This document shows positions 1 to 56,881 of a stretch of DNA of 64,000 nt, in pieces. Below the pieces are notes generated by a model. That model was not told the origin of the DNA. It did no database searches and saw only the letters and a program-made list of their open reading frames with translations. The DNA comes from a phage, in the sequence record NC_135728.1. One strand, 5' to 3'. The first letter of the stretch is position 1; every line of letters begins with the position of its first letter. A program made the translations under genes and the position numbers.

Positions 1-94
1 TAAAAAGGCAGGCGGTGTTGTCCTTGATTGATCATTGACATAACCACAAGGACGTGGTATTGTTACCTCATAAAATGTTTAGGAGGGCTTAACC

Positions 95-301
95 ATGAAA
101 GATTTTCTGTTGGCAATTTTGTTCATGGCAGCATGTCTGGCCTGTGGTGTCGTGTTTGCAGGTGAAACAGCGTATCTTGTCGATGTATATCGGGACAATG
201 GTAAACGTATTTGCCTTTATGAGACAAGTCAAGGTGAGCTCTACGAGCTTGTGAAACAAGGCGAGGCTGGATCTTGTCCTCGCACCCATTTCTTTGAATG
301 A
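95..301 (+). CDS. small protein with N-terminal signal/TM-like segment
   Basis: 68-aa ORF with RBS-like aggagg upstream; N-terminus LLAILFMAACLACGVVFA is hydrophobic. Confidence 0.4.
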   Translation: MKDFLLAILFMAACLACGVVFAGETAYLVDVYRDNGKRICLYETSQGELYELVKQGEAGSCPRTHFFE

Positions 302-13642: not shown

Positions 13643-15762
13643 AAGTTGTAAAACGGGACGGTAGAGAAGAGGTCTATAACGGAATTAAGGTGATCAAGGC
13701 GGCAGAGTCCGCCTTACTTGAGTCTGGACATACTGAAGAAGAAGCTTACCGGATCGCCTGCGCGGTTAATGAAGTTGTTGCTAACAATCTACCAACCGAC
13801 CAGTGCACGATCTCTGTAAAAAATATCCATATCCTTGTTGAAGACGCTCTTATGGATATGGGTTTAAAATGTGCAGCCAGAGAATACATCCAGTATAGGC
13901 AGACAAGAGATAATAACAGAGAGGCAGGTGGAAAACTGCTTGCAGATATTAGTGGCTTCTTGGATCGCACTTGTGATGAATTTACAAAAGAAAACGCAAA
14001 TAAGCCTACCAACCATGTACACACTCATCGTGACCTGCTTGCAGGCATCCTTAGCAAACACCTTGCATCAACACAGATCCTGCCAGACCGTGTCTCCGAA
14101 GAGCACAATAAAGGCTTCATCCATGTGCATGATCTTGATTATTTGATCAGTCCGTTAACAAACTGTTGTTTGGTAAATTATCCAGATATGCTGGAAAACG
14201 GATTCAACATTGGTAACGCCCATGTCAGTAAGCCGAAGTCAATAGGGGTTGCAACAACAATCCTTAGCCAAATCTCTAGTGCGGTAGCTAGTGCTCAATA
14301 TGGCGGTCAGACTATGAGCCATATTGATCATTATCTGGCACAGTATGCTGAAGCAACCTATGAGAAGAACCTTAAATTTTGCCAGGAACATTGGTTGCCA
14401 GATGCTGAGACTGTTGCAATGCAAATGACAGATAAAGACGTATTTGACAGCATGCAGACTTTGCTCTATCAAATCAATACGTTAACTTCTGTCAACGGGC
14501 AAACTCCATTCATTACATTAAGTTTGGGTCTGGACACCTCAGTATTTGGTAGAATGATTACCAAAAACTACTTGAAAGTCCACAAAATGGGTCTTGGTGA
14601 AGAACGTATCACACCTGTGTTCCCTAAAGTGCTGTTCTTCCTAGAAGAGGGTGTCAACATGAACCCTGGAGATCCTAACTATGATTTGAAACGATTAGCT
14701 CTGGAATGCTCTGCAGAGCGGATTTATCCTGACTTTGTTTCTGTTCCACTAAATCGTAAAGTGACAGGCTCGACAGATGGCAAAGTAACGAGCATGGGTT
14801 GCCGGAGTTTTCTTAGCAAATACAATGACTTGGAAACAGGTGAGGAGAAATACCTCGGCAGATTCAATTTGGGTGTTGTTAGTCTTAACCTACCAATGAT
14901 TGCGGCAAAAGCTAAGACGGAAGGTGTTGATTTCTTTGCCGTTCTTGACGAATACCTGGATCTTGCATACGAGGCTCACCTTGTAAGGGTTAACCGTCTA
15001 AAAGGAACAAAGGCAGGGCAGAACCCTATCATGTGGTGTGAAGGTGCTCTTGCTCGCCTGGATCCTGAAGAGAGTATTGATAAACTCTTCTATGACGGGT
15101 ACGCTTCCATCAGTATTGGGTATATTGGTGTGTATGAAACCTGTCAGATTTTGGGCAGGGAGGGTGACAAGGCTTTAGCTCTTGGAATACTTCAGCACAT
15201 GAGAGATGCTTGCGAGCGATACAAGAAGGAAAGTAGACTAGCGTTTAGCTTGTACGGCACCCCTTCTGAGAGTCTATGCTATAAAGCTGCAACCTGTCTG
15301 GATCGTGAATATCCTGAAGTGTTGAAGCACGAGCATGAATATCTCACCAACAGTTTCCATCAGCCAGTGTGGATCAATAGCTCTCCTTTTGATAAGTGGG
15401 AATATGAGGAAGGTTTTGCTATGATCTCCTCTGGTGGCAACATCGGGTACGTAGAGACACCAAATCTGAAAAACAACTTAGATGCTTTAGAGGCTCTTGT
15501 TGACTTCGGGTATAAACACATTATGTATTTTGGTATTAACCAACCTGTGGATAAATGTCTCAAGTGTGGTTTCTCTGGTGAGTTCAGTGCAACAGCTAAA
15601 GGCTTTGTATGCCCAGAGTGTGGAAACCATGAAGAGGGAACGATCAGTGTGATCAGACGTGTATCCGGGTACCTGTCTAGTCCAAACTCCCGTCCTTACA
15701 ATAAAGGTAAGCAAGCGGAAGTTATCGAGCGGGTTAAGCACTATGGAAGTTGTAGTTGCTGA
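13639..15762 (+). CDS. nrdD: anaerobic ribonucleotide reductase class III
   Basis: 707 aa; ATP-cone N-terminus; C-terminal zinc ribbon CLKCG...CPECG and glycyl-radical motif RRVSGYL; GTG start. Confidence 0.9.
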   Translation: MKVVKRDGREEVYNGIKVIKAAESALLESGHTEEEAYRIACAVNEVVANNLPTDQCTISVKNIHILVEDALMDMGLKCAAREYIQYRQTRDNNREAGGKLLADISGFLDRTCDEFTKENANKPTNHVHTHRDLLAGILSKHLASTQILPDRVSEEHNKGFIHVHDLDYLISPLTNCCLVNYPDMLENGFNIGNAHVSKPKSIGVATTILSQISSAVASAQYGGQTMSHIDHYLAQYAEATYEKNLKFCQEHWLPDAETVAMQMTDKDVFDSMQTLLYQINTLTSVNGQTPFITLSLGLDTSVFGRMITKNYLKVHKMGLGEERITPVFPKVLFFLEEGVNMNPGDPNYDLKRLALECSAERIYPDFVSVPLNRKVTGSTDGKVTSMGCRSFLSKYNDLETGEEKYLGRFNLGVVSLNLPMIAAKAKTEGVDFFAVLDEYLDLAYEAHLVRVNRLKGTKAGQNPIMWCEGALARLDPEESIDKLFYDGYASISIGYIGVYETCQILGREGDKALALGILQHMRDACERYKKESRLAFSLYGTPSESLCYKAATCLDREYPEVLKHEHEYLTNSFHQPVWINSSPFDKWEYEEGFAMISSGGNIGYVETPNLKNNLDALEALVDFGYKHIMYFGINQPVDKCLKCGFSGEFSATAKGFVCPECGNHEEGTISVIRRVSGYLSSPNSRPYNKGKQAEVIERVKHYGSCSC

Positions 15763-15765
15763 TAC

Positions 15766-15795
15766 TTGACAAAAGCCACAAGGATGTGGCATATT
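15766..15795 (+). promoter_or_regulatory. promoter with palindromic operator in spacer
   Basis: TTGACA then spacer containing palindrome GCCACAAGGATGTGGC then CATATT; precedes small ORF at 15826. Confidence 0.4.
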
Positions 15796-15825
15796 ATTGA
15801 CACACAGTGAGCTAGGAGGTACAGT

Positions 15826-15942
15826 ATGTCTAAAGGTATTTATAAAATTTGCAAGTGTGGTTGTCGTTGCAATCTTCGTTGGTGCAAGGCACTTGATGAT
15901 TTTATTTGGCATTGCCCTGAATGCGATGCGGAGTACTTATAA
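15826..15942 (+). CDS. small zinc-ribbon protein (38 aa)
   Basis: Below ORF-track cutoff; ATG after aggagg RBS; translation MSKGIYKICKCGCRCNLRWCKALDDFIWHCPECDAEYL carries paired Cys motifs. Confidence 0.35.
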   Translation: MSKGIYKICKCGCRCNLRWCKALDDFIWHCPECDAEYL

Positions 15943-16093
15943 GCATAAGGGGTCGAAATGCGGAAATCTATCAAGAAAATCAAGATAAGATTGTTGGTAC
16001 TGAAGCGTAAGTATAAAAAGTTATACGGCTTCATTAAATGGACTTTTATAGGTTTATCTTGAATAGAAGCACACCACAGAAGAGAGGTTCCTT

Positions 16094-16330
16094 ATGATAG
16101 GTGTCTGTGTAAAAGCTAACAGATGGTTTACATTCGGTAAGGATTACGAAATTATCTTTCATTCGGACAGAGCCACAACAGTAGAAAGCGATGATGGGTG
16201 CTACTGGTTCGTTAGTTACCATGGTGATGGGTATTATAGATCTACTGATTCCAGAGGGGAAGAAGCTGTTTTCTTAGATAGAGCTTATTGTGGGCCTGAA
16301 TATCCCTACCTCAAAGAGGATAAGGAATGA
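16094..16330 (+). CDS. hypothetical protein
   Basis: 78-aa ORF, stop overlaps nrdG start. Confidence 0.4.
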   Translation: MIGVCVKANRWFTFGKDYEIIFHSDRATTVESDDGCYWFVSYHGDGYYRSTDSRGEEAVFLDRAYCGPEYPYLKEDKE

Positions 16331-16800
16331 ATGTTGTTAATATTATAGAGTGTAGCATGGTTGACGGCCCAGGCATTAGGACAACGGTGTTCTGTTCTGG
16401 TTGCCCACATCACTGTGTCGGTTGCCAAAACAAAAGTGTTTGGTCACCAGCTAAAGGTGAACCGTTAACAAATGACACTATTGAGAGTATACTTCACTCT
16501 ATAGAGCCGAAACATATTACTGGCGTTACATTATGCGGTGGCGAACCTTTAGCGCCTTACAATATCGATGGTATGTACTCGATCATTCGCGCTATCCGTG
16601 AACGCTTCGGCAACACAAAAACTATCTGGGTGTACACAGGGTATTTGTTTGAAGAGGTTCCCGATCACATTAAAGATAGTGTCGATTACATTATGGATGG
16701 TAAGTACGAAAAAGATAACCCTACCAAAAAAACCTTCAGAGGTAGTGATAACCAAAGAATGTTTAAAAAGGTAGCAGGCGGTTGGGTTCAGGTTGACTAA
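16327..16800 (+). CDS. nrdG: anaerobic RNR activating enzyme (radical SAM)
   Basis: 157 aa; Cys cluster CSGCPHHCVGC near N-terminus; follows nrdD. Confidence 0.8.
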   Translation: MNVVNIIECSMVDGPGIRTTVFCSGCPHHCVGCQNKSVWSPAKGEPLTNDTIESILHSIEPKHITGVTLCGGEPLAPYNIDGMYSIIRAIRERFGNTKTIWVYTGYLFEEVPDHIKDSVDYIMDGKYEKDNPTKKTFRGSDNQRMFKKVAGGWVQVD

Positions 16801-16803
16801 TTG

Positions 16804-16833
16804 TTGACAAAGCTTTGTTAAGTTGGTTATAAT
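16804..16833 (+). promoter_or_regulatory. sigma70-like promoter TTGACA-N18-TATAAT
   Basis: Perfect -35 and -10 hexamers read directly; followed by aggagg RBS. Confidence 0.55.
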
Positions 16834-16856
16834 TAGGAAAGCAGAGGAGGTGCCAA

Positions 16857-16970
16857 ATGGCTAAAAAAGCCTTGAAGAAGGCGTACAAAAAAGAAATTGC
16901 GCTTGAGCTTAAGAAAAAACACAAGCGTGAAAAGAAACATCATGAGGATGAAGAGGGGGTGCAACAGTGA
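16857..16970 (+). CDS. small highly basic protein (37 aa)
   Basis: Below ORF-track cutoff; ATG after gaggagg RBS and consensus promoter; translation MAKKALKKAYKKEIALELKKKHKREKKHHEDEEGVQQ. Confidence 0.3.
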   Translation: MAKKALKKAYKKEIALELKKKHKREKKHHEDEEGVQQ

Positions 16971-17317
16971 CACAAGAACGTATCGATTTGGCTAATAAGT
17001 TTGTAGATCTCATTTTGCCACGGTTAGTTACTCAACATGCAGACGCTATTTCTACTAATCTTGATGGCTTACGCCTAATGCTGAATCGCACAGATGACCC
17101 TCGTATTCGGGCTGATTTAGAAGCCTCTGCCAACAAACTGGAAAAGTTCTTGCAAGTAGACACGCAAGAAGCCTTACACAAGATTATGGTGGAAGGTTTC
17201 TCTAAAGAATTTACCATTAAAGAGCTTAAGGAGCTGATCCACCAAGAAGAGATGAATATCCGAGTTCAGGCTGTTGCAAGCAGCATGGAAGCGGCTATTG
17301 AAAAACTGTTGCAGTAA
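16967..17317 (+). CDS. hypothetical protein
   Basis: 116-aa ORF, GTG start overlapping upstream stop. Confidence 0.4.
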   Translation: MTQERIDLANKFVDLILPRLVTQHADAISTNLDGLRLMLNRTDDPRIRADLEASANKLEKFLQVDTQEALHKIMVEGFSKEFTIKELKELIHQEEMNIRVQAVASSMEAAIEKLLQ

Positions 17318-17355
17318 AAGTACTTGACACATCTCAATCTGAAAGGAGTCCCAAC

Positions 17356-18144
17356 ATGGGTCGAGCTAAAGAAACAAAACGCATGCGTGATGAAGCTAGA
17401 GAGGCTCGCAAATCTGATCGCCTGCGTAAGGCTGCTGAGAAATTTGCTGACGAACGAGAGCACACAGCTCCAGCTCTCCGACCAATGAATAAAAAGCAGC
17501 AAAAGTATCTTGATTATCTAGGGTCACGTAAGATTATTATTGTAAACGGTGTGTTTGGATCCGGTAAGACATTCATGGCATCTGCATATGCAGGTGATCT
17601 TCTGCGTAAGAACGAGATTGATAAGATCATTGTTGCACGTCCTTACGTTCAGACAGGAAAGACTTCAGGATTTAAACCTGGAAATGCAATGCAGAAACTG
17701 TGGCCCTATCTTAGAAGCATGATGGACACGATTTGTCGTCGTGTTGGCAAAGGTGCTTTTGCCGCAATGCTGGGAGACGGTCAGAACAGCCGTATCGAGA
17801 TTTGTGAGGTTGAAAGCATTCGTGGTCGTAGTTTCGATGAGCGATGCTTTGTCCTGATTGACGAGGCACAGCAAACTAACCCTGAAGAAATGTTGTCAAT
17901 TATCACAAGGATCTCTGATCAGGCCACTCTTGTAATTATGGGAGATAATAGTCAACGTGACATCCCTGGTAAATCTGGCCTTGCATGGGTGACAGATTTC
18001 TTTACTCGTCATCCAGATCCTGAGGTTGGAATGATCAGCTTTGATAGTCCAGACGATGTCGTTCGTTCCGGGTTGGGTCGTCAGATTGCACTCAATCTTA
18101 TTGAGGATCGTGCAAATCATATTTGGACCCCTGTTTCCGAGTAA
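17356..18144 (+). CDS. phoH: PhoH-like ATPase
   Basis: Walker A GVFGSGKTF, Walker B-like VLIDEAQ, overall PhoH-like layout. Confidence 0.75.
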   Translation: MGRAKETKRMRDEAREARKSDRLRKAAEKFADEREHTAPALRPMNKKQQKYLDYLGSRKIIIVNGVFGSGKTFMASAYAGDLLRKNEIDKIIVARPYVQTGKTSGFKPGNAMQKLWPYLRSMMDTICRRVGKGAFAAMLGDGQNSRIEICEVESIRGRSFDERCFVLIDEAQQTNPEEMLSIITRISDQATLVIMGDNSQRDIPGKSGLAWVTDFFTRHPDPEVGMISFDSPDDVVRSGLGRQIALNLIEDRANHIWTPVSE

Positions 18145-21198: not shown

Positions 21199-21237
21199 TA
21201 ATTTATCTTACCAGGGACGGTAGAAGTAGGAGGTAGC

Positions 21238-22268: not shown

Positions 22269-22469
22269 AACTGTTTATACTGTTCTTAAAGAGATTGCGT
22301 TCTACGCAGATCTTAGCCAGGCACCTTTATGGGAAAAGAGCATGTATTTAAAATGGTGCGTTAATTTATGGAGACCTTCCAGTGTTTCAAGCCATGTTTA
22401 TTGAGATGCTATCTGGGGTATTGTTACTGGTAGCCATCTTAGGTGGTGCAGTTCTGATGTATAACTATC

Positions 22470-23131: not shown

Positions 23132-23191
23132 TGTGCAATAAGGCACAAAGGATGTGCCATAACTAAATAAACTAAGAAAGAGGTAGAGAGA

Positions 23192-23539
23192 ATGCCAAAG
23201 ATTAAATCGATATTAATGTGGGTAGCTGTTGTGGCTTTTGTAGGATACTGGACTTGGGAAACTGAATTAAAAGATATCGGATATACCAGTCTTGAGAACA
23301 AGGCGTGCATTGGCATAACCGATGCATTCAGGCAAAATGCTATGGATCACGAATGTGTCGATGCAGACATAGATGAGAAACTGTCTAAGGACAAAGACTT
23401 CTACCACGGGTATGCTTTGCTTGATAGTGGAGACACTGTAGAGTTCTGGTCGTGGTTCCGTAAAGATGGAACAATAAAAACAGCAGTAAAGATCTCTAAC
23501 AAAGAGTTAATGCTGTTGCAGCAGAAGGAGGCTCAATGA
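23192..23539 (+). CDS. hypothetical protein with N-terminal TM segment
   Basis: 115 aa; RBS agaggtagag; preceded by palindrome GGCACAAAGGATGTGCC. Confidence 0.45.
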   Translation: MPKIKSILMWVAVVAFVGYWTWETELKDIGYTSLENKACIGITDAFRQNAMDHECVDADIDEKLSKDKDFYHGYALLDSGDTVEFWSWFRKDGTIKTAVKISNKELMLLQQKEAQ

Positions 23540-26889: not shown

Positions 26890-26980
26890 TCCTGCTTGGA
26901 TTAGCAGGCTTCCTCGATAAGGAAGGTTTGTAATTATTTGTGGGAAAGGAATCCCAATCTCTTACCAGAGGTGATACTAT

Positions 26981-31971: not shown

Positions 31972-32199
31972 CACACAATTAGTTGCCCGGCTAAAGTGCT
32001 GGGAGCACCCATAACACATCTTTCAACTAAATTTCCTACCACCACAATCACTTACCTCCCACACATGACTGTTTGCTTGTTTAGTGAGCAGTCATGCCTT
32101 GACATTCTTGCCTATCCTGATAAAATTAAGTTCTTCTCTTTTCTTTTACCGAGTAATTCGGGTTTTCTGTTCTCTTCGGTTTGAAGGGGTATGGAGATA

Positions 32200-32840
32200 C
32201 ACCTGAGTGAACAGGGTGAACAACCGAACCATTGGCTATGGCATTAGCATGGCGAAGCGGACGGGTGACGAAAGAGGGGCCGGAGGACACCAGTCACTGC
32301 CATATGATATATGGGTGATAACCTGAAGAGTCTGAATAAGTGTTTAAGTACCAGTCAGAGGAAAAGGTGAATGGTAGCCGAAGGGGGAGGGGGGTTACCT
32401 GCTTCTGTAAACATGCATCTGAAATACTACTTTAGATAACCTGAACCTGCCTTTCTGACAAATATTCCCTATTAAACTTGAATTATTTATAGAAAATACC
32501 ACAACACCACTTAAGTCTTTGATTTTACACACAAATCTTACAGATATTAAACCTCTCTATTTAACATACCTGTAACATATACTATACTCCACCTGTCTGA
32601 TCAATTTCCCCAACTACATCCCCATATTTTCCCTGTCTGTACTACCCCTGCCCCGCCGGGAGTCCCGTCATATCTGGCTTTCCAGCAAATATCACACCCA
32701 CAAATATCATCACCTGAAGAGGGTTTCATCCCATAATACATGCCTTACCTGAAGAGCGCTTCATATACCCCGTAAATTTTTTAATTGACCCCCTCCCCGC
32801 CGCCGGAGGGGTTGGCTTTTCCCACACAAACCTGAAGAGT
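32200..32840. repeat. dispersed ACCTGAAGAG repeats in non-coding region
   Basis: ACCTGAAGAG read at about 32322, 32712, 32750 and 32830, with ACCTGA half-sites at about 32205 and 32440. Confidence 0.5.
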
Positions 32841-33394
32841 CAGCCAGAAATATCTGAACAGCCAGTTATACCACGATTTTGTGCTTGTCCTACAGGAGTG
32901 CTTCCCTGTCAGGAGCCGGTAGCGACTGGAGTGCTGCCAGGCGGACGAAATGGGAATACTTCTCATTCTTATAACAATTCTCAAATATCGAGGCAGTGAG
33001 GCAAATTAATAGGTGAGGCCGTTCACACAGTGGCACAACATTTGCAACCTATCTTGTGGGATTGAATGAGAATACCTATCATTGTGAGAACTGTTATCAT
33101 TACGGGCAATTTAACATAATACCCATTATGCGCACCACTGGCGATACATACAGGGATTTATAACATGAGTTACTGTTTACGTATATAACAATTATATTTC
33201 TTACTATTTGTGTGGGATATAGTTAGCAGCCGATAGATTAGATATTGACCTGCAGACTTCCAACCGTCTAGACGTCTAAACGCCCACACAACAAGGTTTA
33301 TACATACATTACTGAATGTAAACAGGGCCGCAAAAATGCTACCATACAAGATTGTAAATTTTTCATGCAGCACTTGACAAAGAGGAGAAAAACT

Positions 33395-33476
33395 TGTCTG
33401 ACACTTTAGACACAATAGTGACATAATATGACACCTTTGACACACTGGACACATTAAACATAATTGACATGCCTGA
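33395..33476. repeat. array of (T/A/G)GACA(C/T) hexamers at about 10-bp spacing
   Basis: tgacac, agacac, tgacat, tgacac, tgacac, ggacac, tgacat read in series in AT-rich context. Confidence 0.5.
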
Positions 33477-33509
33477 CTGTTTACATAGCTAACTATTTAC
33501 TAAAAAATG

Positions 33510-33850
33510 ATAAGCCATGCCATTCGTTTGCATGATAAAGATTAGCAAGTTAATAATCTTTCGCTGGCTATGCCAGGTGACCTTTGGTCACCCCTTCGGG
33601 TGTTTCTATGACATAATATAAAAGCAGGGCAACTATTAGCAGATCATAGTTGCCTTGCTTGTTAACACCCTTGAGACGAAGGCTTTGCCTGAGTTTATGT
33701 CATGATTAACTAAATACAAGGCAACTATGATCTGATTAATAGTTTGCAGACAAACTATCACGGGGGTGATGGTTACTGCTTTTATATTATGTCGCGACTC
33801 CGTCGCGCCATGCCATTCGTTTGCATAGTTGCCTTATTGTTACGAATAAA
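33510..33850. repeat. inverted and direct repeat complex
   Basis: 18-bp perfect inverted repeat GACATAATATAAAAGCAG / CTGCTTTTATATTATGTC (about 33611 and 33777); direct repeat GCCATGCCATTCGTTTGCAT (about 33515 and 33808); palindromes GGTGACCTTTGGTCACC and GGCAACTAT...ATAGTTGCC. Confidence 0.55.
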
Positions 33851-34452
33851 ACAATTGCATTGTTAATGATTTCTTATCTTTCTCTTAGTCATCTAATGAT
33901 TCCAGTCAGTCTAGTAATGTACAGTAAACATTAGACGACTAAAGATTTCCCTGTTTATGATAACTCACCGTGATAATTTCAGGCTGTTTACTAAAAATGT
34001 TGACACCTAAGCTGATTTATGTTATGCAGTTTACACGAATAATTATTTTATGCAGGTATTGACTATTCCGTTATTCTATGGTTGGAATAAATACTTAGCA
34101 GACTATAGAATGGTGAGCGTACGTAAATTCTGAGATCTGGCGGCTATAGTTATACTCGATTTTTCACGTAGAACACGCTTTTGTGAGTGTGTAAGTGTAT
34201 GACTTATAAAGATTTTTAGTTGTTGACAAGATATTGAAGATGTGCATCAGGTTAAATTTTGTGCAATAGCGGCATTACGTGCAATTCTGAGAGAGAAAAC
34301 GGGTAAAAATGGCCCTGCTACCACAAGATGAAAGATTATGCAATAGTTATTTTTATATGTATATTTGTACAGTAGGGTTAATTGCTGGCTTGTTGATTAT
34401 TCCACTTGCCAGGTGGGGCCGTTTGTGGTAGGAGAAATACAGACAAAAAGAA

Positions 34453-34480
34453 AGGGGCCTTTTAAAGCCCCTGATAGTTT
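34453..34480 (-). terminator. rho-independent terminator (minus strand)
   Basis: Minus-strand hairpin AGGGGC-TTTAAAA-GGCCCCT followed by TTCTTTTTGTCT after stop of 34491..34910. Confidence 0.5.
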
Positions 34481-34490
34481 AGTTAAGAAA

Positions 34491-34910
34491 TTATAATGAT
34501 TCGTATATTTCAAAAATCCGATTTGCCAGGTCGTTACGGTAGCGGAATTTTTCCTCACGTTTGATCATCAGATCTTTAAAGCCATATTCTTTAAGCACTT
34601 CATTAACTTTATGGCGGCATACCTTCATATTATCTTGTGCGTCACCAATAAACTTGTTGCTATGGTGCATGGCTTTAATTTCTTCTTCCAGGACCAGGGC
34701 AACTATGCGGACCGGATCAAGCTGATAGGCGGTAACATCAATGCGGCATTGTAAACGGCTTTTTACGTCTGCCACCGGATATACTGCAACCTCTTCCCCG
34801 TCAACATTGACAATAATTAGTTTACCATCGATTTCGAATCCTTTCGCCGCCGGACCGTGACAAAAAGCGTTATCAAAGCTATATGCCGGATTATTAGATT
34901 TAATGTTCAT
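34491..34910 (-). CDS. hypothetical protein
   Basis: 139-aa ORF with agagg RBS and upstream promoter. Confidence 0.5.
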   Translation of the reverse strand: MNIKSNNPAYSFDNAFCHGPAAKGFEIDGKLIIVNVDGEEVAVYPVADVKSRLQCRIDVTAYQLDPVRIVALVLEEEIKAMHHSNKFIGDAQDNMKVCRHKVNEVLKEYGFKDLMIKREEKFRYRNDLANRIFEIYESL

Positions 34911-53497: not shown

Positions 53498-53868
53498 TGA
53501 TCGGTCTCCTTCTTGTTAAGTCTGAATACTGCAATAATAGTATTCCCAAGGTGCAGTGTCAAGTCATTTCCAAGGTACCACAGCATCCCACGGTCATCTT
53601 TAATGAAAGGGTAACAATCTGGTGCCTTCCAGACATTGTACACTTTCCCAACCTGAAAGAAATCAGGCCCTGTTGGTATTTTGGTGCCAGGCCACACTTG
53701 AGATACCTGAACACACTCCACCTGCATAATAACAGGAATGGTCATGGATGTAAATGTTTTTGTTGGCTCTACTACCATAAAAGTCTCCTCTTTGCTCAAC
53801 AGCACCTCCCTGTGCTGATAGTTTACATTAGTGACAATCCCCCCAGTTACGACCACACAAGTATTCAC
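53494..53868 (-). CDS. hypothetical protein
   Basis: 124-aa ORF; its 5' end overlaps polymerase exon 2 so the true start may be internal. Confidence 0.35.
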   Translation of the reverse strand: MNTCVVVTGGIVTNVNYQHREVLLSKEETFMVVEPTKTFTSMTIPVIMQVECVQVSQVWPGTKIPTGPDFFQVGKVYNVWKAPDCYPFIKDDRGMLWYLGNDLTLHLGNTIIAVFRLNKKETDQ

Positions 53869-54181: not shown

Positions 54182-54457
54182 CAATAGTTCAGGTAGGTCG
54201 TTAAGCTACCCCGCACCATTACGTGCATAGCCATACGTTTTCACGTAGGATCGGACCATCTCATATTCCTATGATAAGCAACCACAGGAATCCTCCCATT
54301 TCGACCGCACTTGCTGGTCTACTTCCTTTCGGAATGGCCTCTGAGCGTTCGCTCTTTTGAGCGCTTCGTTGCGGATTACCTTGCCATAAGGTTTAGGCTT
54401 CCCGCAGTTAAAGAGGTTATTCGACATAGATTACTCTATGAAGCCACAATGTTATTT
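54182..54457 (-). other. group I self-splicing intron in DNA polymerase gene
   Basis: 5' exon ends in U with U-G pair to guide sequence GUGG; intron ends in G; P10 pairing CAUU with exon-2 GAUG; core elements P AACUGCGGGAAG, Q AAUCCGCAAC, R CUCAGAGGCC, S GAGAUGGUCC in canonical order. Confidence 0.75.
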
Positions 54458-56881
54458 ATGGTAATAAATAATACGACGAACACCTTCATCGTACCACCCA
54501 CGCTTCACCATTTGGTGGTGCATGAGTATCCCAACTAAGTCACACAGCGATGCACCACCATTTTGTTGGTATGCATTAAGTAAAGAGTGTTTAGATCTGG
54601 TCCAGATAGCATGACCATCGAAAGAGTAGATAAACTTCTTACCTGTTGCTTCCCAGAATTTCTCCAGATCCTCTTTGCGCCCCTTAAGACCGGGGTTGGC
54701 ATCCCAAAGTGCATCTATTACCCTTTGCCCCAACTCTGGAGAGATGTCCAACATATCTGCAACTTTATCTTTTTGTGCCCCGTACATAACACCATACGTG
54801 ATAGGTTTACCGTCGTTACGGGACACCTCTCTGCCTGCTACTTTTGTATATGCCTCGGCATTGTTTTGGTGTGCGTCTCCGTTACTTACAACATCATAAT
54901 ACAGGCCGTTGTCGAACTCAAAGGCACCCCAAGCCCCGATAAGCTGCTCTAAGTTGGACCCGTCAATACCGATCTGAAAGTATCCGGGAGGAACACCCCA
55001 TAGACTACGCATCTCTTTACCCATAACCACTTTAGGAGATGGTTTAGGCATGTTTGCACAAATACTGTGTTTCTGTCTGGAAGTGTTTGTTAGCCCAGAA
55101 CTTTTAGCAGGAAGCTTATGGTCAATCTTCAAACGTGGGTGATTAAGAAGACCAGTATCAACCTTATCCTCCTTGATTGGGTCAAGGACCGATCTGCGGT
55201 TTCGCAATGATAACCACAAGACGATATCTTTAGCCATCTCTCCGTTCAATTTTTCAAGATTCGGACACAGGTGTCCAAACGTATCTTTCAGTTGCGGAGA
55301 AGTAATAAGTGCCCTGGCTTTTCTACGTATTTTCCCGAACACTTCCTTTTTAATCCTTTCGGAGTTAGGAAAGCTTCGGAACTTGTGCACGGTTGTCTGG
55401 AACTTAGCATCAGTTTTGTTCCAGAAGTTGATAATTAGGTCACAATACTCTGACTCTAAAAGCTCGTCCATATAAGCATATACTCGTGCATCAACATCTG
55501 CATCAGGTAGAGCTTTCTTCTTGCTGTCTTTAGTTACATCCTTAGTTCTCCACATTGTCGGGAGCCAGCCAGCGCTGATCAGATACCGCTTAATGTCGTC
55601 CTGATTGCTGATTTTCATAGGTATCTTGCAGTCCGGCATTCGCTTCTGCTGTAGATCACTTATTGCCTGATCCATCAGCTCTTTAGGCAAAGGGTGTGGT
55701 GTGGAAGTTCCCTTAATATAGCCTCTCAAGAAATCAGCCATCTTATCGGGGTCTTTGCAGCCCATCTCTTCACACCATTTTATCCCCATCTTGCTGACAT
55801 CCCCTGTAGAGGTAAATGCTCTCTTAGGCGGGGCTTTGAACTCTAAAGCGCTCATGTCTACAGGATAGCCAAGCTTATCTTTTAACCATTTCCAACCATT
55901 ATTAGAGATTGTCCCGTCTTGGTTAAACGGCTTTTCAGGGAACTTGGGCCGCTGAGACATTGACAGCTCTTTTAAAGGCAGTTGTGGTTCAACACGATCA
56001 GCTATTTCTTTCATCCACGCATCGCAACGGTCACGTAAAGCAATAGCTCCATCTATGTCGAAGTATACACCCTGACGGGCCTGCAGCTCCATCAGGAAGT
56101 GCTGCAGCATGCCTCGACGTAATGCGTTCTTCCAGGTGATCTTCTTGAACCCTTTCGGCTTCTCTTTGGCAGGATCGTACATAAAGTTCTGCATGTCAGA
56201 TTTGCCGTAGAATACACCTTTTGATTCCGCTACCAGCTCTTTCCAGAGCAGCTCCTGGATGATAACGTCCTCGAATACACGATCCACATACTTCCACAAC
56301 GGGAGATCGCGCCAGTCATCAATTTGAACTTTCTGGTTACCAAGGGCGTAGCCCCATGCCATAAGACCGTGAGGTCCAACAGGCTGCATTTTCTTAGTAA
56401 CCGGGTTAAATACTGAGTCTGGACAACCTTTTGGCAAAGGTCGGTCAGGCCACAAAATTCGGCTCATAGCCAATGTATCAAACAGATTAACCTGGTGGTC
56501 GTTGATAGTCCCCATACACTTAGGATCACGGAACATATCAAAATGAATACCGGACAATCTCTCCATCAGCATAAAGTCGTAGCTGTAGCAGTTGTGGCAG
56601 TTCAAAGCTGTGGGTGACCAGTCAGAATTGCCTGTAAGCCAACCTTCCAACTCTGAAAAATCTGCTATGCGAACTTCAAAATCTTTATAAAGAGTTTTCT
56701 TTGCCAGAATAAAGTTCTTAGCCTTCTCTATATCCTCTTCAGAGTAGTGTGTGCGGTCATTTAGAGGAAGGAACAGCATAAAACGGTTCTTATTCAGCTC
56801 TTTAAACAAGCCGCAGTGATAATAAAGATCTAGGTCTTCTAGTAAACCAGAGGCCTCCAGGTCGAAAGACCACATACTCAT
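54458..56881 (-). CDS. DNA polymerase (family A), exon 1
   Basis: 3'-5' exo motif FDLEASGL; polymerase motif A-like QIGIDGSNLEQ; motif B KPITYGVMYGA; ORF stops one codon after YYH, just before the expected HDE. Confidence 0.8.

Follow-up and report, generated by a model that had tools for sequence, protein, structure and literature searches.

Conserved GGA-loop hairpins between the genes of an rV5-like coliphage: probable RNA elements and candidate CsrA sites

Introduction

Does a short palindrome lodged between the −35 and −10 hexamers of a phage promoter serve as an operator for a DNA-binding protein, or does it act once transcribed, as a hairpin in the mRNA? The question is raised by phage sequence record NC_135728.1, of which a stretch of 64,000 nucleotides (hereafter the window) was analysed. 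An earlier note, made from the sequence alone, reported a palindrome in the spacer of a promoter at about 15766 and a second copy upstream of the gene at 23192, and took the pair for the operator of a repressor or activator. Comparison of the copies with each other, with their orthologues and with hairpins elsewhere indicates that the flagged palindromes are real, conserved hairpins and probably not DNA operators for a repressor.

The phage and the sequences compared

Over positions 14000-18000 the window shares 96-97% identity with rV5-like myophages of E. coli (genus Vequintavirus, with genomes of about 138 kb), and the whole window is assigned to an rV5-like Vequintavirus, a lytic E. coli myophage. 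Its first position corresponds to position ~72015 of rV5. Genes run on the + strand to ~32 kb and are followed by a non-coding gap and then by genes on the − strand. The regions around the three sites described below were aligned across rV5, seven unannotated Vequintavirus genomes, one IMG/VR contig and five metagenome contigs; only a few extra haplotypes were gained from IMG/VR and the metagenomes, and no orthologues of ORF134 and the site 3 region were found outside Vequintavirus. An Rfam scan of the window returned a group I intron as its sole match, with none at the hairpins, and a literature search found no Vequintavirus transcriptome or transcript-start map.

Three similar hairpins between genes

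The two palindromes had been read and placed correctly, as GCCACA-AGGA-TGTGGC at 15775-15790 and GGCACA-AAGGA-TGTGCC at 23142-23158. The repeat is real, and a hairpin scan added a third, closer copy at 43-58 that the earlier note had missed. The copies are referred to here as site 1 (43-58), site 2 (15775-15790) and site 3 (23142-23158), and these are the only tight copies in the entire rV5 genome. All three are intergenic and lie on the sense strand, 10-40 nt after a stop codon (that of the endolysin gene, nrdD and ORF133, respectively), and 33-36 nt separate the end of each from the next ATG (95, 15826 and 23192).

Site 1 comprises the following features:

35..40, + strand: −35 hexamer TTGACA, from a consensus scan, invariant in 10 relatives despite a variable upstream flank
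43..58, + strand: hairpin ACCAC-AAGGAC-GTGGT, a 5-bp stem with a hexaloop, from a hairpin scan
58..63, + strand: −10-like hexamer TATTGT, starting at the last hairpin base; the extended −10 TG comes from the right arm
81..97, + strand: Shine-Dalgarno sequence AGGAGG and ATG (95) of the rV5 ORF90 homologue

The ORF90 homologue adjoins the endolysin gene and encodes 68 aa with a hydrophobic N-terminus. The promoter-like site upstream of it (TTGACA-17-TATTGT, 10/12 in the consensus scan, with TG before the −10) is a predicted one and coincides with the predicted rV5 promoter P90 (Kropinski et al. 2013). In the alignment of relatives its −35, stem and −10 are invariant and its loop is variable, with AAGGAC in this window only, ACGGAC in most relatives and ACAGAC, which has no GGA, in A141. 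Since the site 1 loops of relatives differ, sites 1 and 2 have a 12-mer in common in this phage lineage only. The site 1 hairpin is absent from the minimum-energy fold of its 94-nt context, where GUGGU can pair with the start-codon sequence AACCAUG instead. In A141, C12 and C2 an HNH-AP2 gene is inserted directly upstream.

Site 2 follows nrdD:

15766..15771, + strand: −35 hexamer TTGACA, beginning 4 nt after the nrdD stop codon (15760-15762)
15775..15790, + strand: hairpin GCCAC(A)-AGGA-(T)GTGGC, the palindrome of the earlier note
15790..15795, + strand: −10-like hexamer CATATT, after TGTGG (extended −10), from a consensus scan
15814..15828, + strand: Shine-Dalgarno sequence AGGAGG and ATG (15826) of the rV5 ORF114 homologue, a Cys-rich ORF of 38 aa

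Here the promoter claimed at 15766 holds at the level of the consensus: the scan predicts TTGACA-18-CATATT with TG before the −10 (10/12), and the hairpin lies between the two hexamers within the 18-nt spacer. It is not among the predicted promoters of Kropinski et al. 2013. Eight relatives keep the −35, as does the divergent IMG/VR contig L027, which also keeps the rest of site 2 (its NrdG is just 52% identical). Among the closer relatives the whole region is nearly invariant, so conservation of site 2 says little. The minimum-energy RNA fold includes the hairpin, and the site passes a loose terminator pattern, with the tail ATATTATT. In D1 and A141 site 2 is replaced by a T5orf172-like endonuclease cassette.

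Site 3 has fewer promoter features:

23142..23158, + strand: hairpin GGCAC(A)-AAGGA-(T)GTGCC, starting 10 nt beyond the ORF133-homologue stop codon and ending 33 nt before ATG 23192
23158..23163, + strand: weak −10-like hexamer CATAAC, after TGTGC, with no −35 in the window

The promoter proposed at 23142 therefore stands in part: an extended −10-like TGTGC-CATAAC is present, but the consensus scan called no promoter there and the −35 is not conserved. The −35 position reads GTGCAA in the window and TTGAGA, in the same register, in one other clade, while the −10-like hexamer is CATAAC in the window, CATAAT in rV5 and CATGAT or CATAGT in other relatives. The loop, AAAGGAU, is 7 nt long, i.e. 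it has one extra A. The hairpin is the sole structure of the RNA fold (−9.2 kcal/mol, z = −2.0). The 17 nt of the hairpin and the next AT are invariant in 13 sequences representing at least 7 haplotypes (one of them 77% identical), while about half of the alignment columns vary on either side. The downstream Shine-Dalgarno sequence has no GGA.

At sites 1 and 2 the hairpin thus fills the promoter spacer, its right arm (T/C)GTG(G/C) provides the extended −10 TG, and the −10 starts at the last base of the stem. The sequence of site 3 suggests, weakly, that its hairpin is likewise packed into a σ70-type promoter.

A small class of intergenic hairpins

The repetition exceeds chance expectation at several levels. 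The 12-mer CACAAGGAYGTG has 2 exact matches in the window against 0.02 expected, a count reached in none of 100 shuffles, whereas the loose pattern CACA-N4-5-TGTG is unremarkable (6 against 2.7 expected). A.GGA. hexaloops on stems of 5 bp or more number 5 in the window against 0.44, again a count that 0 of 100 shuffles reach, and of these 5 hairpins 4 lie between genes (P = 0.002, from crude gene calling). When only intergenic hexaloop hairpins of the sense strand are considered, 4 of the 32 in the window have the A.GGA. loop, against 0.07 expected under a Markov null (0 of 1000 simulations reach 4). Throughout the rV5 genome, six such hairpins are found on the sense strand and none on the antisense strand, and A.GGA. 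is the commonest of 256 loop patterns. Looser members are as follows:

21209..21222, + strand: TACC-AGGGAC-GGTA, intergenic, 15 nt before an ATG, followed by the Shine-Dalgarno sequence AGGAGG
26941..26956, + strand: TGGGA-AAGGAA-TCCCA, intergenic, with no surrounding promoter
53800..53817, − strand: CAGCAC-AGGGAG-GTGCTG, ~22 nt before an ATG with the Shine-Dalgarno sequence GAGGAG
rV5 22317-22338, − strand: a further member

These further members are conserved among relatives, and their loops vary at an N position. In the 21209 hairpin an A-to-G change in one relative retains a G.U pair, and the loop of the 26941 hairpin is AAGGAA or AAGGAG in relatives, varying at the last (N) position only; loop substitutions at site 1 and in the 26941 hairpin fall mostly on N positions. 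The Shine-Dalgarno sequence downstream of 26941 is without GGA. The 53800 hairpin lies on the sense strand of the minus-strand gene block and has an AAGGAG loop in rV5.

The class appears to be restricted in its distribution. None of these hairpins was found at 15 unrelated NrdG loci (~51 kb), and none was found on the intergenic sense strand of a phi92-like 40-kb region or of a syntenic 38-kb region from a Salmonella phage (Seunavirus-like; the record stands under Demerecviridae). Fold z-scores are not significant for hairpins as short as these (16 nt). Covariation in an alignment of the paralogues (100% pairing) was discarded as circular, the sequences having been collected as hairpins. On these comparisons, the palindromes are most likely members of a small class of intergenic sense-strand RNA hairpins with stems of 5-6 bp and an A(N)GGA(N) loop, of which CAC-AAGGAY-GUG would be the tightest form.

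The same loop after nrdD in other lineages

Immediately 3′ of nrdD's stop codon, the hexaloop A(N)GGA(N) (AAGGAU or AGGGAC) is found in four lineages, each with its own stem. One of these lineages carries a second cassette with the AAGGAU loop:

Window, rV5 and L027: GCCAC-AAGGAU-GUGGC
D1 and A141: GAGAGC-AAGGAU-GCUCUC with a U-run, upstream of the −35
L025: GCCU-AAGGAU-GGGC, with a U.G closing pair and no promoter
L026 (position 478): AUGUGC-AGGGAC-GCACAU, promoterless, with the start codon (ATG) of an HNH gene 19 nt downstream
L026, second cassette: ATAAGCTC-AAGGAT-GGGCTTAT, with one G.U pair, then a T-run, then a TTGACA-N17-TACTAT promoter

In D1 and A141 the hairpin precedes the TTGACT promoter of the inserted T5orf172-like endonuclease gene, and the D1 regulatory region has no paralogous copies elsewhere among the genomes compared. 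The G.U pairs and the strand bias of the class point to RNA, and it is fairly likely that the hairpins act at that level. The transcripts would contain them, judging from the upstream genes on the same strand and the lack of a strong terminator between.

A possible site for CsrA

The loop recalls a well-characterized RNA motif. The SELEX consensus of CsrA is RUACARGGAUGU, in which ACA and GGA are invariant and GU is nearly so; the GGA of the ligands is presented in a hairpin loop, usually a hexaloop, with AC pairing with GU, on stems mostly of 4 bp or fewer (PMC7652899). NMR of RsmE likewise describes an ANGGAN hexaloop (PMC7652899). Site 2 agrees with the consensus at 10 of 12 positions, including the entire core ACAAGGAUGU, and in the same fold (CAC-AAGGAU-GUG). 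Set against the consensus, site 1 gives ACAAGGACGU, and site 3 has one extra A. The loops are thus CsrA-type hexaloops at sites 1 and 2 (AAGGAC and AAGGAU, both on 5-bp stems), with AAAGGAU at site 3. A tblastn search of rV5 and the window with an E. coli CsrA query gave no CsrA homologue with a match better than E = 4, so the partner of a phage lacking its own homologue would be host CsrA. The likeliest of the explanations considered, although short of probable, is that these are RNA hairpins within compact promoter/terminator cassettes that are bound by host CsrA and selected for that function.

A mechanism can be proposed along these lines. Read-through transcripts from the upstream gene (endolysin, nrdD or ORF133) would carry the hairpin, whose loop would offer a near-optimal site to the host RNA-binding protein. 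A single CsrA dimer could, at sites 1 and 2, span the distance from the loop to the Shine-Dalgarno GGA 32-33 nt downstream, and this bridging would repress translation of the next cistron, as for glgC and ColE7 T1-cel. Transcripts that start at the embedded promoter would be without the hairpin and may therefore escape CsrA control.

The second GGA of this scheme lies at 82-84 for site 1, 32 nt 3′ of the loop GGA, and at 15815-15817 for site 2, 33 nt 3′ of it; site 3 has none. GGA occurs within 20 nt of the ATG in 65% of genes, and its presence at sites 1 and 2 consequently carries little information. For the same reason, joint loss of GGA from the loop and from the Shine-Dalgarno sequence of site 1 was set aside as uninformative: A141 has lost both and C12 the Shine-Dalgarno GGA alone. 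A CsrB-like sponge in the 2.4-kb non-coding gap was also rejected, as GGA occurs there 20 and 18 times on the two strands against ~29 expected on each. A literature search found no paper on cis-acting CsrA sites in the mRNAs of lytic coliphages.

The resemblance to known CsrA/RsmA hairpins lies in the GGA of an A(N)GGA(N) hexaloop on a short hairpin with AC/GU closing, the ACARGGAUGU core being exact at site 2, and in the intercistronic position of sites 1 and 2, tens of nucleotides upstream of a Shine-Dalgarno sequence that contains GGA. It differs in that the present hairpins are candidate sites only, belong to a virulent phage, sit in promoter spacers and have stems of 5-6 bp; site 3 departs further, with its 7-nt loop and a Shine-Dalgarno sequence without GGA. 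A parallel in arrangement is ColE7, where CsrA, bound to the GGA of the intercistronic T1 stem-loop and to a site at the Shine-Dalgarno sequence of cel, represses this lysis lipoprotein gene (PMC2896534). There, too, a terminator-like intercistronic hairpin on a mobile element stands upstream of the gene for a small lysis protein.

Several observations count against CsrA. Should the downstream genes be transcribed mainly from the embedded promoters, their mRNAs will not contain the hairpin. The site 1 loop is ACGGAC in most relatives and ACAGAC in A141, and neither site 3 nor the 26941 hairpin is followed by a GGA-containing Shine-Dalgarno sequence. The stems, of 5-6 bp, exceed those of most SELEX ligands. 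Finally, the register between hairpin and −10 is the same in all three tight copies, which a model based on RNA only does not require.

Alternative explanations

The hairpins could instead be purely structural, as terminators or attenuators coupled to promoters in the manner of the promoter early stem-loop elements (PeSLs) of T4-like phages, which combine a terminator with a promoter, flank insertions and deletions, and have stem-loops with phage-specific consensus stems (PMC2839356, PMC4122927). In such a cassette the hairpin would damp read-through at the point where a σ70 promoter restarts transcription, the T-rich −10 would double as a weak U-tract, and the loop would have no partner in trans, the likeness between copies stemming from common descent or from recombination of cassettes. 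The compact layout of hairpin and promoter is indeed shared with the PeSLs of RB49/phi1, PST and nt-1, whose stems are phage-specific as well, and next to both kinds of element close relatives differ by the gain or loss of small or mobile genes. Sites 1 and 2 have a predicted near-consensus σ70 promoter in an intergenic region (10/12, plus TG), and homing-endonuclease insertions abut both of them in relatives, much as PeSLs flank indels, although such genes insert in intergenic regions anyway. Site 2 is flagged as terminator-like, and the versions in D1/A141 and L026 are clear successions of hairpin, T-run and promoter.

The remaining properties fit this explanation less well. PeSLs occur in dozens of copies, are ~100 bp long and form effective terminators with G/C-rich stems and no described conserved loop, whereas the present elements, from a different phage family, are two or three in number, and have short stems, in most cases without a U-tract, and a GGA loop that is conserved. 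Many copies in hyperplastic regions are not seen; rV5 has three tight ones. Promoter-like sites of the form TTGAC[AT] with a spacer hairpin of at least 5 bp number 4 of 47 in the window against 0.8 under the null, and with only this many, spacer hairpins were rejected as a general habit of this phage's promoters. As for termination, the G/C-containing stem and T-rich tail of site 2 and the T-runs of the D1/A141 and L026 versions resemble Rho-independent terminators, while sites 1 and 3 have no U-tract and the stems (about −9 kcal/mol) do not reach the stability of the published rV5 terminators, −11.5 to −24.7 kcal/mol (Kropinski et al. 2013). The loop is better conserved than the stem between copies, the opposite of what structure alone predicts, and the loop of site 3 is invariant among orthologues between variable flanks. 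The members at 21209 and 26941, in L025 and at position 478 of L026 have no promoter at all. A purely structural role is therefore unlikely, and membership of the PeSL family is not claimed, given the few copies, the short stems, the U-tracts that are mostly absent and the conserved loop.

Another partner might recognize the same RNA. Such a partner could be a phage RNA-binding protein or nuclease, or the 30S subunit through AAGGA, which is complementary to the 3′ end of 16S rRNA; the hairpins would then be translational operators, RegB-like processing sites, or 30S standby or decoy sites. All of the evidence for an RNA element with a constrained loop applies equally here. A lineage-specific phage factor would also fit the confinement of the class to Vequintavirus-like phages and its absence from a phi92-like phage and the related Salmonella phage, whose hosts have CsrA too. 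No candidate protein was identified, however, and with tblastn values of E = 4 or more a phage-encoded CsrA homologue does not offer itself. The loops mostly lack GGAG, the target of RegB, and a 5-nt Shine-Dalgarno-like sequence within a 6-nt loop is poorly placed for pairing with 16S rRNA. The match to the CsrA consensus extends past GGA to ACA...UGU. A partner other than CsrA is accordingly rather improbable.

The operator with which the question began would be double-stranded DNA in a promoter spacer, bound by a dimeric phage or host repressor or activator that switches the promoters during infection. Part of that reading stands: the motif is real, repeated and conserved, and it occupies the spacer of a σ70-like promoter in two of its three copies, centred between the hexamers of two good TTGACA promoters, with spacers of 17-19 bp and a fixed register. 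The arms of site 1 are invariant while its loop varies, and those of site 3 are fully invariant, which is more than pairing alone requires. The operators of the MerR family lie in promoter spacers of 19-20 bp, and the spacer lengths seen here are similar.

What disfavours an operator is the way in which the copies differ. Their arms (GCCAC/GTGGC, GGCAC/GTGCC and ACCAC/GTGGT) each form a perfect palindrome, the outer two stem pairs differing as G-C, C-G and A-T, so that every difference is symmetric and preserves pairing. Symmetric, compensatory changes of this kind argue for selection on base pairing and not for recognition of half-sites. Nor is the spacing of the half-sites constant: CACA and TGTG are separated by 4 nt at sites 1 and 2 and by 5 nt at site 3. 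Conserved half-sites around a free centre would be expected of an operator; here the outer arms vary, and the non-palindromic centre A(A)AGGAY is the part best conserved between copies, always on the mRNA-sense strand. Stems of unrelated sequence carry the same loop away from promoter spacers, and G.U pairs occur that at the DNA level would count as mismatches; the looser members at 21209 and 26941 are not in promoters, and site 3 has no recognizable promoter in the window.

A scan of ORF158 and five neighbouring ORFs found no candidate sequence-specific regulator: ORF158, annotated as a 'transcriptional regulator', gives a weak GapR-like match below the cut-off. No MerR-like protein was identified among them, and covarying arms, variable spacing and use of the loop outside promoters set these elements further apart from MerR-type spacer operators. 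The motif is not known to fit the sites of CRP, FNR or NrdR, the DnaA box, GntR-type, 434 or lambda operators, or lambda boxB. A DNA operator is thus quite improbable. That the palindromes arose by chance and have no function is hardly credible, for although the motif is short, with three tight copies only and no enrichment of CACA-N4-5-TGTG, the exact 12-mer is found twice against 0.02 expected, the hairpin class is enriched and strand-biased, site 3 is invariant amid variable flanks, and the element recurs after nrdD on different stems.

Implications for rV5-like phages

The reading in which host CsrA binds these hairpins carries a broader and more doubtful corollary, namely that a virulent E. 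coli phage has evolved near-optimal CsrA hairpins between its genes, part of them within promoter spacers, through which host CsrA gates selected cistrons or by which the transcripts titrate CsrA. If this tentative proposal is right, CsrA, as a read-out of metabolic state, would gate cistrons that include the gene following nrdD and, beside the endolysin gene, the small one with a membrane- or lipoprotein-like product, and transcripts initiated at the embedded promoters would bypass that control. Alternatively, abundant phage transcripts may titrate CsrA in the manner of CsrB.

Post-transcriptional control in large virulent coliphages beyond T4 is almost unexplored, and rV5-like phages are widely used in therapeutic and biocontrol cocktails. 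Binding by CsrA would mean that these phages couple the expression of lysis-associated and nucleotide-metabolism genes to host physiology, and would provide a testable case of a lytic phage that exploits a global bacterial RNA regulator in cis. A practical lesson is that a short palindrome between the hexamers of a phage promoter should not automatically be taken for an operator; where the phage genome is compact, it may be an RNA element overlapping the promoter.

Predicted alternative fold at the ORF90 start

The right arm of hairpin 1, the GGA-loop hairpin in the predicted P90 promoter spacer at site 1, reads GUGGU (window 54-58) and has an alternative partner, AACCAUG, at the ORF90 start codon (window 91-97). 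In RNA fold prediction, this pairing forms the minimum-energy fold of the 94-nt RNA around site 1. Such an alternative could constitute a switch between open and blocked states of the ORF90 start codon.

Other elements in promoter spacers

A published promoter of the relative rV5, P51, shares the layout of site 1 with a different loop, and its extended -10 TGG is supplied by the hairpin right arm.

rV5 48319 (locus L002, outside the window), - strand: published promoter P51, TTGACA-ATGC-ACCAT-AATC-ATGGT-AAAAT
rV5 NC_011041.1 65722 (locus L003, outside the window), - strand: promoter-like site TTGACA-GCAGGGAGTAATCCCTGC-TATTTT, upstream of ORF79
Window 39285, 43007 and 43628, - strand: three promoter-like sites, TTGAC[AT]-CCAGGGCCATCAATAAAG-TAAA[CT]T, with an identical 18-nt spacer

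The spacer upstream of ORF79 is filled by a 7-bp palindrome, and ORF79 encodes a small GntR-like winged-helix protein; the site resembles a classical operator for autoregulation, with no relationship to the GGA hairpins. The three sites with the CCAGGGCCATCAATAAAG spacer, whose rV5 counterparts lie at 110848, 114592 and 115223, are a repeated promoter cassette of the early-gene block.

Mobile genes, a small ORF and an intron

In some relatives, the GGA-hairpin sites are the exact insertion points of mobile endonuclease genes. The T5orf172-like ORF of D1 and A141 takes the place of site 2, the hairpin just 3′ of nrdD, together with the last ~20 nrdD codons.

L009 20588-21520 and L010 (D1, A141): T5orf172-like ORF, 310 aa, 3′ of nrdD
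L010 3210-3971: HNH-AP2 ORF, 253 aa, between the endolysin gene and site 1
Window 15826-15942, + strand: 38-aa ORF between nrdD and nrdG
Window 54232-54467, - strand: group I intron (Rfam RF00028, 64.7 bits, E = 4e-14)

The 38-aa ORF, missing or substituted in some relatives, has two pairs of Cys residues (CKCGC...CPEC), a pattern suggestive of a zinc ribbon; a Pfam search with it returned no match. The group I intron is located in the DNA polymerase region.

Repeats in the non-coding gap

The gap at window ~32150-34500, termed 'non-coding' by the rV5 authors, holds clustered repeats, both direct and perfectly inverted.

Window 33610-33842: repeat cluster built on GGCAACTAT/ATAGTTGCC

Its repeats include 18-nt arms with 100% complementarity, and the cluster may represent an origin or another protein-binding array.
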